Of a DNA stretch of 64,000 bases, positions 14,200 to 17,500 are shown piece after piece (position 1 is the first letter of the stretch; every line of letters begins with the position of its first letter). The translations under genes were made by a program, and so were the position numbers. Under the pieces are notes generated by a model. The model was not told where the DNA came from. It made no database searches and saw nothing but the letters and a program-made list of their open reading frames with translations. This DNA comes from a virus, in UHGV virus genome UHGV-0149956. The stretch is one strand, 5' to 3'.

Positions 14200-14778
14200 A
14201 TGTTGCGCTTTACTGAGGAAGAGTTTCAGGCTTTTAGTGAGCGTCGAAATAAGGGGCGGTCCAGGCCAAAAACCAAAAAGGATCCATTCTTATCGCTTGC
14301 GCCGGTAAAAGAAGTTTCTCCACATGCGAAGGCACTTGCAGCACTGGCAAAGAACCCAGACCTGCGCGACGGAAATTGCGAGCACTTCGAGCAGGTTTTC
14401 ATTTTTGATTACTTCGAACGCAAGCACCCTGACATCTATGAGCTGTTGCATGCAACGCCTAACGGAGGGAAGCGTTCAAAAGCAACCGCCGGGAAAATGA
14501 AGGCTGAAGGGCAGAAAAAAGGTTATCCGGACATGAGTCTCGATAAAGCATGCGGTATTTATCACGGCATGCGAATTGAGCTTAAAGAACCAAATGGTAA
14601 AGCCCCGACGAAAGAGCAGATCGCCTGGATGCGCAGGCTTAGAGAGGAAGGCTACTACGTTGTTCTTGCGTATGGTGCAGAACAAGCGATTACCGCCATC
14701 CTGGAATACATAAGTCTTAAAAAGGGTGAGGCTATCGAGCATGTATTGAACGGCGATAAGTGGTTGCATATTGCTTAA
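14200..14778 (+). CDS. VRR-NUC domain nuclease-like protein
   Basis: ATPNGGKRSKATAGKMKAEGQKKGYPDM...GMRIELKEPNGK fits the VRR-NUC (PD-(D/E)xK) pattern. Confidence 0.55.
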   Translation: MLRFTEEEFQAFSERRNKGRSRPKTKKDPFLSLAPVKEVSPHAKALAALAKNPDLRDGNCEHFEQVFIFDYFERKHPDIYELLHATPNGGKRSKATAGKMKAEGQKKGYPDMSLDKACGIYHGMRIELKEPNGKAPTKEQIAWMRRLREEGYYVVLAYGAEQAITAILEYISLKKGEAIEHVLNGDKWLHIA

Positions 14779-14974
14779 AATAATAAATTAATTAGTGCAT
14801 ATACGCTCTTTGTGATAGTGCACTTTAACATCGGGAGAATAATCGTGTCATCCAAGGTTAATTATGAGTCGCTGGCATCGGTCATGCCGCGTAATGAACA
14901 GGAAACAGATGCTGTAGTGGACCCTGTAATCGCTGAAATGAATGCTCGCCTGGAGGCTGAATTTGCAGCTGAGA

Positions 14975-15604
14975 ATGAACATACCACCCAGGGCGACTAG
15001 GACTGTTTTTTGTGTCGGTAGCGGTCCGTCACTCACTCGTGAGGACTGTGCTGCTATAGAAAAAACTGGCTGTTCAATCATCGCGGTTAACAATTCCTGG
15101 CAGATGTTCGATGACATTTATGCCTTATACGCCGGTGATTTGTCATGGTGGAAGCAATACGGATCCACCATACCGGGAGGGAGATTCCGCAAAGTGACAG
15201 CCAACCTGGCGGCGGCGAAATCATTTTCGTTGGAGTACAGGCGATATTGTGGACCGGCGGAAGGGGTAAATAGCGGCGCGCAGGCTATCAGTCTGGCTGC
15301 TGAATCAGGGGCTGAAGTAGTGGTATTAGTCGGCTATGACTGTTCTCTGCAAAACGGCCTTCATTGGCATGGCGCGCACCCTCAAGCACTACGGAATCCA
15401 ACGCAGGTGTCTATTTCAAAATGGCAACAGCAGTTCCTGGATACCCGCAAAAAACACGCAGATTTACATATTTTGAATGCAAGTAGGAGCAGTGCAATTC
15501 AATGTTTCCCAAGAATAAATTTAGAGGCAGTGATCGCGTTATTATCGTCGGCAGTGGCCCAAGCGCCGCAAACTTTGTTGCGCCGCGCGGAGTGCCGATT
15601 ATAG
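14975..15604 (+). CDS. MptE-like (DUF115) protein, paralogue 1
   Basis: VFCVGSGPSL...IIAVNNS signature; start uncertain (track gives 14942); 3' end overlaps the next paralogue by about 100 nt. Confidence 0.45.
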   Translation: MNIPPRATRTVFCVGSGPSLTREDCAAIEKTGCSIIAVNNSWQMFDDIYALYAGDLSWWKQYGSTIPGGRFRKVTANLAAAKSFSLEYRRYCGPAEGVNSGAQAISLAAESGAEVVVLVGYDCSLQNGLHWHGAHPQALRNPTQVSISKWQQQFLDTRKKHADLHILNASRSSAIQCFPRINLEAVIALLSSAVAQAPQTLLRRAECRL

Positions 15605-16128
15605 CGGTCAATGGGGCCATCGACTGGCTTAACCGCGCTTCTTATTTTTTCACCCTTGATCCATCCCCAGACAATATGCGGCGCGTTGGTCGTGGCCGCC
15701 GTCGCCGTGGTGTTTGTTATTGCATGGCACTACCCGATGTTAAAGAACGTGAAGTCAGGGATGGCGTTCTGTGCTTCCGTCGTGTGGCTGAACGCGGCAC
15801 GGAGCCAAAAAATACGAATTCTCCCGAGTGGTGGGCGTGGCGCTGGTCCGCTCATTTCGGCCTTTGCGAAGATGAGAATGAAATTGCCAGCGGCAATAGT
15901 GCATATGGTGCTCTGAACCTGGCTTTCCATATCGGATTCAAACATGTAGCCCTGGTGGGCGTTGACGCTACGCAAGAACCACGCGTTCACTCCGGCGGCA
16001 CGCCAAAAAATCTAAGTCACCTGCCTTTGTTATTCCAGTCTGCGCGTGAACAGATTGACGTTGTTTCATGCGGGAAAATGGGAGGTATTCCGCAGATGAC
16101 TCTTAAAGAATGGCTGAAGAATACATGA
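15502..16128 (+). CDS. MptE-like (DUF115) protein, paralogue 2
   Basis: [13 protein letters not shown]...IIAVNGA signature, same architecture as the preceding ORF. Confidence 0.5.
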
Positions 16129-16802
16129 TGGCACCCACAATTTATCACCGTATCGACGGTACCAAATACAGGAATGTCTGGGTTGTTGGTGATCTGCATG
16201 GTTGCTACACCAGACTGATGTCCGAACTCCATCGTGTGGATTTTGACCCGGCGCAGGATTTACTGATATCGGTCGGCGACCTTATCGATCGCGGTACTGA
16301 AAATGTCGAATGTCTGGAACTATTGCAGATGCCCTGGTTCAGGGCAGTGATGGGGAACCATGAGCGGTTGATGCTCGATGCGTTAAGTCCTGATGGCAAC
16401 GTGAATAACTGGCTAATGAATGGTGGACAATGGTTCTTCATGTTGGACACTGATCAGGAAATATTAGCCAGGGCGCTGGTGGAGCTGGTAAGACGTCTGC
16501 CCTATATCATTGAGTTGAACACCGGGCAAGAAACTATCGTTATAGCCCATGCCGACTATCCGGATAATGAATATCAATTCGGTAAGGAGGTGCCGCTTTT
16601 CAACGTTGTCTGGGCGCGCGAGCGTATCAGTGATTCGATGGATGATATTGGTGGCGAAATTTCGGGCGCAGATCGTTTTATCTTTGGTCACACTCCGGTG
16701 AAAAGCCCGAAGACATTCTGGAATCAGCATTATATCGACACTGGTGCCGTATTTTGCGGAAACCTGACATTGATCAAAGTGAAAGGTGATGGTGCAGCAT
16801 GA
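16125..16802 (+). CDS. ppp: Ser/Thr protein phosphatase, lambda PPase-like
   Basis: Collinear with lambda protein phosphatase: [50 protein letters not shown]; start set at ATG 16125 overlapping upstream stop. Confidence 0.85.
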
Positions 16803-17500
16803 AGATTGCTTTAGTTCTTCGCTCTGGTGGTGACTATAACGCTTCCGATGTGCAGTGGCTGGTTAATCAACTGCCAAAAGGCTATGAAATTATTTGCCTG
16901 ACAGACCTGAAGCGTTTACATGTACCTGGCGTCAAAGTTATCCCATTGATCAACCAGTGGCAAAAGTGCCGTGGCTGGTGGGCGAAAATTGAGTTGTTCC
17001 GACCGGATATAACCGATGATCTGTTCTATCTGGATTTGGACACGGTTATTGCCGGTGATATACGCCCAATCCTTGAGAATCCACCAACCAGCTTCACCAT
17101 GCTTAGGGATTTTTACCATCCACAATATCGTGGTAGCGGTGCCCTGTGGATACCAAATAGTGTAAAAGCGCATATCTGGAGTGCATTCTGGCAAGATCCG
17201 GAAGGTTGGATTGCTCGTTGTGTTACTACTGAATGCTGGGGTGATCAGGGGTTTTTGCGGAAGGTTATGGGTGATGATACACCAGCATTTCAGGATCTGT
17301 ATCCAGGATGGTTTGTAAGTTACAAGGCCGATGTTGTGGAACCTGGTTCAAAATATGCGAGCGCGCGTTACTCCAGGGGGAATGGGACATTACCAAAGGA
17401 CTGCCGAATAATCTTTTTCCACGGCAAACCGCGGCCTCGCGAAGTGTCAGAGGATTGGCTTCCCCTCATTAGCTCGTTTTTTGAGCGAGAATCAGAATAA
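16799..17500 (+). CDS. DxD-motif glycosyltransferase-like protein
   Basis: 233 aa; [13 protein letters not shown] resembles a GT-A DxD motif; ATGA overlap with ppp stop. Confidence 0.4.

Follow-up and report, generated by a model that had tools for sequence, protein, structure and literature searches.

Our comparison of a 64,000-nucleotide stretch of viral DNA (UHGV-0149956; hereafter the window) with related phages shows that pmgO, pmgP and pmgQ alone form the conserved unit of their gene cluster. These three genes very probably encode a single glycosyltransferase cassette, which we tentatively read as a late-expressed, cytoplasmic system that glycosylates proteins, probably those of the virion. 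The window belongs to a P1-type phage, with 98.8% identity to phage P1 over 100% of positions 14000–17600 (megablast), and the locus described here is the pmgL–pmgQ operon of P1, which was catalogued before and is non-essential: pmgM–pmgQ have been annotated since 2004, carry family-level names in RefSeq and are dispensable for plaque formation. What is new is that pmgO, pmgP and pmgQ are recognised as a glycosyltransferase cassette that is mobile, linked by fusions and found repeatedly in late/structural operons of many Gram-negative phages, and that the gene overlap, the nuclease and the phosphatase are separable from it. The features of the locus are listed below, with window position equal to AF234172 record position minus 64650.

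13845–13863, + strand: Lpa-dependent late promoter LPpmgL, placed according to the P1 annotation (AF234172 78495–78513)
13878–13894, − strand: C1 repressor operator O26/Op82, annotated in P1, 15/17 match to the operator consensus
13952–14197, + strand: pmgL, non-essential, 81-aa DksA/TraR-like zinc-finger protein (PHROG 54, E 1.6e-12), outside the conserved cassette
14200–14778, + strand: pmgM, 192 aa, stand-alone VRR-NUC (PD-ExK) nuclease matching PDB 4qbl
14785–14801, − strand: C1 operator Oppp (Op83), annotated in P1, weak match (13/17)
14845–15000, + strand: pmgN, small ORF of 51 aa per P1 annotation, open from 14812, overlapping the pmgO start (PHROG 2350)
14942–15604, + strand: pmgO, 220 aa, alternative Met at 14975, predicted MptE-like/Maf/GT42-fold enzyme
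15502–16128, + strand: pmgP, 208 aa, predicted second MptE-like enzyme, distant PmgO paralogue
15502–15604, + strand: pmgO/pmgP overlap, 103 nt, pmgP in the −1 frame relative to pmgO
15517–15523, + strand: heptamer A_AAT_TTA read in the frame of pmgO, formally a −1 slippery site (X_XXY_YYZ), probably there by chance
16110–16802, + strand: ppp, 230 aa, lambda-type Ser/Thr (metallo)phosphatase, in a variable slot between pmgP and pmgQ
16799–17500, + strand: pmgQ, 233 aa, predicted GT8-type (glycogenin/Gat1/LgtC-like) GT-A glycosyltransferase
17502–17567, no strand assigned: C1 operators OpmgRa/OpmgRb and promoter PpmgR, from the P1 annotation and operator matches at 17502–17518 (+) and 17551–17567 (−)

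The genes correspond to P1 pmgM, pmgN, pmgO, pmgP, ppp and pmgQ, all on the + strand, and the reading frames given for pmgM, pmgO, pmgP, ppp and pmgQ in a first-pass annotation of the window are borne out. The pmgO gene is nucleotide-identical to the P1 copy and pmgL is likewise identical to P1, while the remaining genes differ by 2–5 residues. Translational coupling had been proposed for the cluster as a whole; it is supported at pmgL/pmgM, which lie 2 nt apart, and at the pmgP/ppp and ppp/pmgQ junctions, which overlap by 19 and 4 nt, but not at pmgM/pmgN, where a gap of 33–66 nt contains the annotated operator Oppp. According to the P1 annotation the unit is served by both a C1-controlled early promoter and the late promoter LPpmgL. 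The C1 operator consensus has 15 matches across the window against 0.27 expected, and Oppp was not recovered by the scan of the window at ≤3 mismatches. The interval 17502–17567 is where the pmgL–pmgQ unit ends and pmgR–pmgS begins, and the genes that follow in P1 include pmgR, which is active in head completion (PMC9024508).

The case for a cassette comes from its behaviour outside P1. A scan of viral contigs with the PmgO alignment returned P1 copies only, and a distant-first PmgP alignment found the non-P1 contigs; a degenerate DNA pattern for WWLWRW, designed to exclude P1, gave 120 loci that were all chance, none with an HMM match. Of 25 non-P1 viral contigs, about 20 have all three genes together, and the three lie side by side in a lambdoid prophage of C. 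rodentium, a podovirus-like contig, and HK97-like prophages of Pseudomonas and Ochrobactrum. They are also joined by protein fusions, of PmgO to PmgP (P0171), of PmgP to PmgQ (P0309 and P0397), and of PmgO to a GT9 enzyme (P0306 and L106). The cassette lies either after the capsid gene, preceded by portal, protease and capsid genes and followed by head-completion, gp10-like and tail genes, or between lysis and terminase genes. Glycosyltransferase genes, in some cases with methyltransferase genes, are found inside late/structural operons, as they are in phage virion-glycosylation cassettes. Against a 70%-identical relative, dN is 0.14–0.24 and dS is saturated.

The other genes of the cluster are mosaic neighbours that stand outside this machine, and a single functional unit of all seven genes is rejected because only pmgO, pmgP and pmgQ travel together. 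The nuclease-like character first ascribed to pmgM is upheld by its match to the VRR-NUC protein 4qbl (E 3.5e-17), in which GYPD...IELK aligns and the PD...ExK motif is present; PmgM scores 21.2 bits against Pfam VRR_NUC, slightly under the cut-off of 23.8, and 4.8e-27 against the PHROG ‘Holliday junction resolvase’, and pmgM is not beside the cassette in the non-P1 phages examined. Ppp is likewise the lambda-type phosphatase that it had been taken for, matching lambda PPase 1g5b in full length (residues 11–229, E 5.4e-95) and Pfam Metallophos at 1e-15 (59 bits, cut-off 21.5); phage D6 has ppp alone, and in relatives its slot holds a methyltransferase, another GT-A protein or nothing. Of the nucleotide-sugar-dependent modification module originally envisaged, only the part made up of pmgO, pmgP and pmgQ is supported, by their co-occurrence and fusion in unrelated phages; the nuclease and phosphatase drop out. 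The GT-B-like gene at 8032–9006 (Dbn), which had also been counted in, has only a GT4-like match under the curated cut-off (E 3.7e-5), no sequence match in PDB, and a place in a separate operon, and we found no link between it and the cassette.

PmgO and PmgP are ancient paralogues with the MptE-like/Maf/sialyltransferase fold, as the earlier assignment to tandem MptE-like/DUF115 proteins had it. Compared directly (hhalign), they match with a probability of 96.7% and E 3e-10 at 24% identity, and the GSGPS...IAVN signature is present in both. The conserved core of PmgO spans approximately residues 20–198 and carries the invariant motifs GPS, AVN, D, NSG, GYDCS and HWHGxH; PmgP belongs to a highly conserved family (328 homologues, mean column identity 62% in alignment A4) with the motifs GSGPS, IAVNG, LDPS, SPEWWx[15 protein letters not shown] and NLSHLP. 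Against Pfam PF01973 (MptE-like/DUF115) the P1 proteins score 23.4 bits (PmgO) and 20.9 bits (PmgP), with a cut-off of 34.6; their fused relative P0171 reaches 44.6 bits, and precomputed PF01973 matches exist for many homologues. The fold is common to PmgO, PmgP, Maf, MptE and Cst-I. The PmgP profile found no sequence match in PDB, PADLOC and NCBIfam gave no match for PmgO, PmgP or PmgQ, and matches in a BFVD fold comparison were limited to uncharacterised viral MptE-like proteins.

The overlap between these paralogues, put at about 100 nt in another frame by the first-pass annotation, measures 103 nt and had been thought to reflect a frameshift or a recent duplication. A recent duplication is contradicted by the 24% identity of the paralogues and their saturated dS, and an artefactual frameshift by the conservation of the overlap and of the start codon within it, together with its resolution into a single ORF in one relative. 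The pmgP ATG at 15502 takes its A from the end of a Gln codon and its TG from a conserved PmgO Cys codon; it lies at the identical position in 13 of 15 enterobacterial loci, while the overlap varies from 4 to 103 nt across loci, and dS is depressed within it. A programmed −1 ribosomal frameshift at A_AAT_TTA, which would yield a PmgO–PmgP fusion like the natural P0171, is very improbable. The heptamer is canonical, in the right frame, and placed where homology to the fused protein changes from PmgO to PmgP, and the −1 relationship of the genes is conserved. We nevertheless dropped programmed frameshifting because heptamer conservation and a stimulatory downstream structure are both absent: the site reads A_AAT_CTG in P1-like relatives (L115, L254 and L262) and is likewise absent beyond them (L003, the lambdoid prophage), and the downstream RNA fold is not significant (z = −1.07). 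The largely constant pmgP start and the variable overlap also speak against it, and by our own estimate the chance of such a heptamer in ~34 codons is roughly 5–7%.

The third member, PmgQ, had been singled out for a DxD-like DLDTV motif; this lies at residues 79–83, and the protein is assigned to family GT8. Among 41 homologues D79, L80, D81, D149, Q150 and H208 are invariant and G148 of the GDQ loop is nearly so, and the DLD motif, the GDQ loop and the C-terminal His each line up with their counterparts in Gat1 and glycogenin. The GT-A fold of PmgQ is nearest to solved GT8 structures, and its family profile matches GT8 chains in PDB at E 4.7e-8. P1 PmgQ itself has no Pfam match, and Glyco_transf_8 matches the PmgQ homologue of L003 weakly (E 0.31).

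From the folds, motifs, gene linkage, fusions, operon position and non-essentiality of these genes we infer donors, an acceptor and a benefit as follows. PmgO, PmgP and PmgQ, none of which has a transmembrane segment, would be three soluble cytoplasmic glycosyltransferases that act together as one cassette, transcribed in P1 from the C1-repressed early promoter and from LPpmgL. No nucleotide-sugar biosynthesis genes accompany the cassette in the loci examined, and therefore the donors must come from the host. Given their Maf/GT42/WaaZ-type fold, whose enzymes take CMP-activated ulosonic acids as donors, PmgO and PmgP would be expected to do the same, with CMP-Kdo as the sole such donor universally available in P1's hosts, and PmgQ, as a retaining GT8 enzyme, would use a UDP-hexose. 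The joint product may be a short glycan whose acceptor is made in the course of lytic growth. Leads to a protein acceptor come from Maf enzymes, which when expressed in E. coli transfer Kdo from CMP-Kdo to Ser/Thr (bioRxiv 10.1101/2020.06.03.131540), and from PmgO-like genes found next to those for Big_1 Ig-like surface proteins and an inverse autotransporter, along with a GT9 enzyme; one of these arrangements is a fusion. That this acceptor is a protein or virion component is our leading, if still tentative, suggestion; a virion or surface protein would be the most likely candidate by analogy with Maf and flagellin and with virion glycosylation in mycobacteriophages and chloroviruses. We go further only speculatively in positing that P1 and a broad set of Gram-negative tailed phages add a Kdo-type ulosonic acid and a hexose by O-glycosylation to the proteins of their own virions, or to other surface proteins that they encode, through Maf-like PmgO/PmgP and a GT8 enzyme drawing on host LPS precursors.

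The main rival, which we consider somewhat unlikely, is remodelling of the LPS core or an envelope glycolipid, with PmgO/PmgP acting like the Kdo III transferase WaaZ and PmgQ like the GT8 outer-core hexosyltransferases. During lytic growth the core would be altered at the inner membrane, on its cytoplasmic side, and masking or truncating the P1 receptor, which we take to be the terminal core glucose, would lessen superinfection and the loss of progeny on debris. WaaZ is itself a member of the MptE-like superfamily (Pfam E 6.9e-7), the relative P0171 has a faint match to PF27901 WaaZ_KDO_III, the partner families GT8 and GT9 are LPS-core families, and all identified hosts make LPS; moreover, the outer core is truncated in those K-12 glycoforms that bear a third Kdo (PMC4651636). 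Against this, the hhalign probability between PmgO and WaaZ is only 14%, and the genes, repressed by C1 in lysogens and located in late/structural operons, do not resemble classical conversion genes. LPS made so late would presumably replace little of the surface, and in bacteria PmgO-like genes associate with Ig-like proteins. We found no evidence of PmgO or PmgP acting on LPS.

It appears improbable that the acceptor is instead a host protein, or a phage protein outside the virion, glycosylated in the service of host takeover or counter-defence. Such a role would accord with the early C1-controlled promoter of the unit in P1 and with the nearest structural relatives of both folds, which include the protein glycosyltransferases Maf, GlyE, Gat1 and glycogenin, but the repeated location inside head-completion gene blocks is atypical for genes of that kind, searches gave neither a PADLOC nor an anti-defence signal, and published knockouts show no defect in plaque formation or plating on laboratory hosts. 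Slightly less probable again is that PmgO and PmgP are not glycosyltransferases but work on a small molecule, as pyrophosphokinases of the MptE/TPK type or as nucleotide-dependent transferases of another kind, and that PmgQ acts separately. DNA modification is an unlikely role for the cassette, and glycosylation of phage DNA to evade restriction, an option of the first-pass annotation, is given very little weight: DNA glycosylation by phages is known, a VRR-NUC nuclease lies upstream, and a TAGT DNA glycosyltransferase is near the cassette in some relatives, but neither fold is known among DNA glycosyltransferases, we know of no hypermodification of P1 DNA, and a DNA target is disfavoured because the genes that accompany the cassette are those of head, tail and lysis and not of replication, and because single knockouts of non-essential pmg genes leave anti-restriction unaltered (PMC9024508).

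Should virion glycosylation or LPS remodelling prove correct, three long-standing ‘putative morphogenetic’ genes would gain a function. Virion glycosylation in particular would reveal an unnoticed system in the classic transducing phage P1, extend the phenomenon beyond actinobacteriophages, and bear on the use of P1-type vectors by way of immune recognition, particle stability and re-adsorption. Single pmg knockout mutants already exist (PMC9024508).

Among known systems, mycobacteriophage glycosyltransferase/methyltransferase operons reportedly direct virion glycosylation, in work attributed to Freeman et al. in 2023. These systems and the chlorovirus PBCV-1 capsid glycosyltransferase A64R (PDB 2p6w) involve other enzyme families and other hosts than the proposed P1-type system. 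Compared with the retaining GT8 glycosyltransferases glycogenin, Gat1 (the Skp1 alpha-galactosyltransferase), GlyE and LgtC, PmgQ is a minimal version of 200–240 aa that falls below the Pfam GT8 threshold. WaaZ, the inner-core Kdo III transferase of E. coli K-12 LPS, shares the MptE-like superfamily with PmgO and PmgP, its donor CMP-Kdo is available in all hosts, and it works beside GT8/GT9 enzymes in the waa locus; it is, however, chromosomal and acts on LPS, and a close kinship with PmgO was rejected, the marginal profile similarity and the PF27901 match placing the relation at superfamily level only. The GT42 sialyltransferases Cst-I/Cst-II of Campylobacter jejuni give a weak profile match (E 0.2–0.7), and use a lipooligosaccharide acceptor and the donor CMP-Neu5Ac, which is absent from E. 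coli K-12; the invariant HWHGxH that follows the GYD motif in PmgO, and is missing from PmgP, is a candidate counterpart of the catalytic His188.

Close comparators of the PmgO/PmgP fold are the Maf flagellin nonulosonic-acid O-glycosyltransferases of M. magneticum (PDB 5mu5), C. botulinum and G. kaustophilus, although PmgO and PmgP gave no sequence-level match to Maf in PDB. Maf has catalytic acidic residues and a conserved Ser (E324 and D415 in MmMaf, S334 in CbMaf), and candidate counterparts in the analogous motifs are the invariant D55, S100 and D122 of PmgO (A1 numbering) and D43, S120 and D142 of PmgP (A4 numbering). Maf proteins reside in flagellar/nonulosonic-acid loci, and no such genes occur in any PmgO/PmgP locus examined. 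Whereas Maf is a protein of ~600 aa with extra flagellin-binding domains, PmgO and PmgP are phage-borne, single-domain proteins of ~190–220 aa that, unlike Maf, form a paralogous pair with a GT8 partner.

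Our analysis identifies the cluster of nuclease-like, paired MptE-like, phosphatase and DxD-glycosyltransferase-like genes noticed in the first-pass annotation as genes already known from P1: the cluster is real, and its ORFs are already catalogued under RefSeq names (VRR-NUC protein, alpha-2,3-sialyltransferase, '(m)orphogenetic protein', metallophosphoesterase and glycosyltransferase). By megablast, 14000-17600 aligns along 100% of its length with phage P1 (98.8% identical), and it also matches 18 further P1/P7-type phages at 97% identity or more and ~590 P1-like plasmids. While pmgO shows no difference from the P1 gene, the remaining genes are 2-5 residues apart from theirs. 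On the basis of the P1 annotation, the genes are:

13952-14197, pmgL
14200-14778, pmgM, VRR-NUC-type gene
14845-15000, pmgN
14942-15604, pmgO, first gene of the MptE-like/Maf-fold pair
15502-16128, pmgP, second gene of that pair
16110-16802, ppp, lambda-type phosphatase gene
16799-17500, pmgQ, GT8-type gene

The next genes are pmgR, pmgS and pap. The late promoter LPpmgL and one operator of the repressor C1 stand ahead of the pmgL-pmgQ unit, the gap between pmgM and pmgN holds a weak one (Oppp), and two more follow pmgQ; across the window there are 15 C1-operator-like sites against 0.27 expected. Directly past pmgS is a strong intrinsic terminator (19084-19112; 11-bp stem and T run), and no comparable one was found from pmgL to pmgS.

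Within this set, pmgO, pmgP and pmgQ travel together, and pmgL, pmgM, pmgN and ppp are their mosaic neighbours. Scanning viral contigs with a PmgP alignment yielded 25 non-P1 loci, ordered O-P-Q in ~20, P-Q in 4 and P-Q-O in 1. In a Citrobacter rodentium lambdoid prophage the three homologues are adjacent, flanked by lysis genes and terminase, with neither nuclease nor phosphatase. The slot of ppp in P1 holds a SAM methyltransferase in three loci (L257, L260, L261) and a GT-A-like protein in two (L245, L248), and is empty in L251 and several P1-like phage-plasmids; in phage D6, ppp stands by itself within a nin-like region. When the fused PmgO-PmgP protein was run by HMMER against the full set of 1.8 billion representatives, most matches were single-domain PmgO-like or PmgP-like proteins. 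Natural fusions among the matches join PmgP to PmgQ (P0309, P0397) and PmgO to a GT9-like protein (P0306; also L106, 5983-7479), and include tandem PmgO-PmgO proteins and one PmgO fused to an Ig-like (Big_1) domain; P0317, P0367 and P0369 are also listed among the fusions, whose types include tandem PmgO-PmgO and PmgO with Big_1/Big_13 Ig-like domains. Relative to a P1-like Salmonella plasmid, 70% identical, dN is 0.14-0.24 and dS is saturated. This linkage, the fusions and the substitution rates show pmgO, pmgP and pmgQ to be functional and functionally linked. The pmgO of L249, a 101-kb P1-like contig, is broken into a pair of overlapping ORFs (6460-7007), owing either to a frameshift in a pseudogene or to an error in sequencing.

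As to protein families, the best-defined structure match of PmgM is 4qbl (E 3.5e-17), a VRR-NUC protein of the stand-alone type, and the alignment brings their PD...ExK motifs together; Ppp matches the lambda phosphatase (E 5e-95). PmgO and PmgP match Pfam MptE-like only below the curated cut-off, and at the sequence level the PmgO profile matches nothing in the PDB except Cst-II, weakly, in the GxGPS and SG...G(I/Y)D stretches. Invariant across PmgO homologues are GPS, AVN, D, NSG, GYDCS and HWHGxH, the last absent from PmgP, whose family is more conserved (328 matches, 62% mean column identity; motifs GSGPS, IAVNG, LDPS, one beginning SPEWW, and NLSHLP). Transmembrane segments were found in none of the proteins. 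In another operon, Dbn (8032-9006) has a sub-threshold Glycos_transf_1 match (GT4-type, GT-B C-terminal half; residues 221-307, E 3.7e-5, 23.8 bits against a cut-off of 26.4) and no match among PDB sequences; P1 may thus encode four glycosyltransferase-like proteins.

A frameshift or a recent duplication had been proposed to explain the overlap of the paired genes. The family profiles of PmgO and PmgP align by hhalign over their full length (96.7%, E 3e-10) at 24% identity; the two are old paralogues and did not arise by a recent duplication. The overlap, with pmgP in the -1 frame relative to pmgO, is kept in relatives. Its length falls from 103 nt in P1 and 94-100 nt in lambdoid prophages, through 70 nt in the Salmonella plasmid and 40-49 nt in other phage-plasmids, to 4-11 nt in distant relatives; the exception is a podovirus-like contig where PmgO and PmgP form a single 376-aa protein that precedes PmgQ and an extra GT-A-like gene. 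The pmgP ATG keeps a fixed place at 13 of 15 enterobacterial loci, exactly one base 5' of the codon for the conserved Cys in the PmgO CF(P/Q/S) motif; unlike this start, the pmgO stop varies between loci, and the PmgO tail past ...LExxL is unconserved. Inside the overlap dS is 0.56-0.73, lower than elsewhere, as expected of dual coding. In our reading this is a long-standing overlap of an ordinary kind, in which each gene initiates independently. P1 does contain a canonical -1 slippery heptamer in the pmgO frame, A_AAT_TTA (15517-15523), placed where a shift would give a product colinear with the natural PmgO-PmgP fusion P0171. Frameshifting there is less likely, since the heptamer is absent from the relatives compared and the downstream RNA fold is not significant.

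The genomic setting of the cassette is that of late genes. HK97-like prophages (Pseudomonas, Ochrobactrum, Onishia and Martelella) carry it downstream of portal, protease and capsid genes and ahead of head-completion and tail genes. Pooled Pfam scans of three genes per side at ~15-20 distinct loci found portal (6), capsid (5), prohead protease (6), lysis and terminase genes upstream, and head completion, gp10-like, tail completion, tail tube, connector and terminase genes downstream. Solo PmgO-like genes lie between a gp6-like connector and a head-completion gene in a Candidimonas prophage, and within the head-completion block in the L114 and L102 prophages, where a repeat protein of collagen-like KDGxDGKDG units directly past the portal gene (4522-5640 and 4554-5246, respectively) may be a head fibre. 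In enterobacterial prophages, PmgO-like, GT9 (heptosyltransferase-family) and methyltransferase genes occupy the lysis-terminase interval; directly downstream of this module in Erwinia and Pantoea prophages (L092, 8145-9669; also L096), a TET-associated glycosyltransferase (PF20691, E 1.8e-47) together with a ParB-like gene marks a DNA-hypermodification system.

Published genetics indicates that the P1 genes are dispensable in the laboratory. pmgL, pmgM, pmgO, pmgP, ppp and pmgQ are non-essential in both a genome-wide CRISPRi screen and a deletion library; pmgN is the sole discordant gene, its knockdown reducing plating ~70-fold although its deletion is viable, and knockdowns of genes downstream of it are neutral (PMC10695390). 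As 14812-15000, pmgN shares 59 nt with the start of pmgO. Of the 29 single knockouts in a deletion study, 24 plaqued without defect and were unaltered in anti-restriction; no product of these genes appears in the virion proteome, and pmgR, next to them, functions in head completion (PMC9024508). Phage phi456 and CP098997 carry IS elements within this stretch (InsB or IS5 transposase is annotated where the match lies), consistent with dispensability. The literature searched assigns no function to pmgO, pmgP or pmgQ, nor did we find there a reading of them as a conserved cassette of late operons, which is directly testable because P1 mutants already exist.

The cassette comprises a pair of MptE/Maf-fold enzymes and a GT8 enzyme, all soluble, inherited together, sometimes fused and expressed with late genes. 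It supports the part of the first-pass interpretation that foresaw a sugar-transferring unit; the nuclease and phosphatase fall outside it. As no nucleotide-sugar synthesis genes accompany the cassette, we propose that PmgO and PmgP would draw on host CMP-Kdo and PmgQ on host UDP-hexose, with a protein as the most likely acceptor. The main rival is remodelling of the LPS core: WaaZ has the same fold as PmgO and PmgP, the core is built by GT8 and GT9 families, and third-Kdo glycoforms have truncated outer cores (PMC4651636). Modification of DNA, the other target first suggested, is less likely, as are modification of host proteins and a pyrophosphokinase role for PmgO and PmgP. A protein acceptor is favoured by the placement of the cassette inside head gene blocks, by the association of PmgO-like genes with Ig-like surface proteins (a fusion in one case), and by structure, since the closest relatives include enzymes that glycosylate proteins (Maf; GlyE, Gat1 and glycogenin). 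When expressed in E. coli, Maf enzymes attach Kdo to Ser/Thr (bioRxiv 10.1101/2020.06.03.131540). In non-phage settings, an inverse autotransporter and small Big_1 proteins have PmgO-like and GT9-like genes on their flanks. On Lonsdalea, Buttiauxella and Serratia chromosomes (L108, 919-9259; L111, 5986-8425; L122, 1-2115), PmgO-like genes adjoin an invasin-type inverse autotransporter and small Big_1/Invasin_D3 proteins, accompanied in Lonsdalea by GT9-like genes. The position of PmgO-like genes beside the autotransporter suggests adhesin glycosylation, by analogy with the heptosyltransferases that modify autotransporter adhesins.
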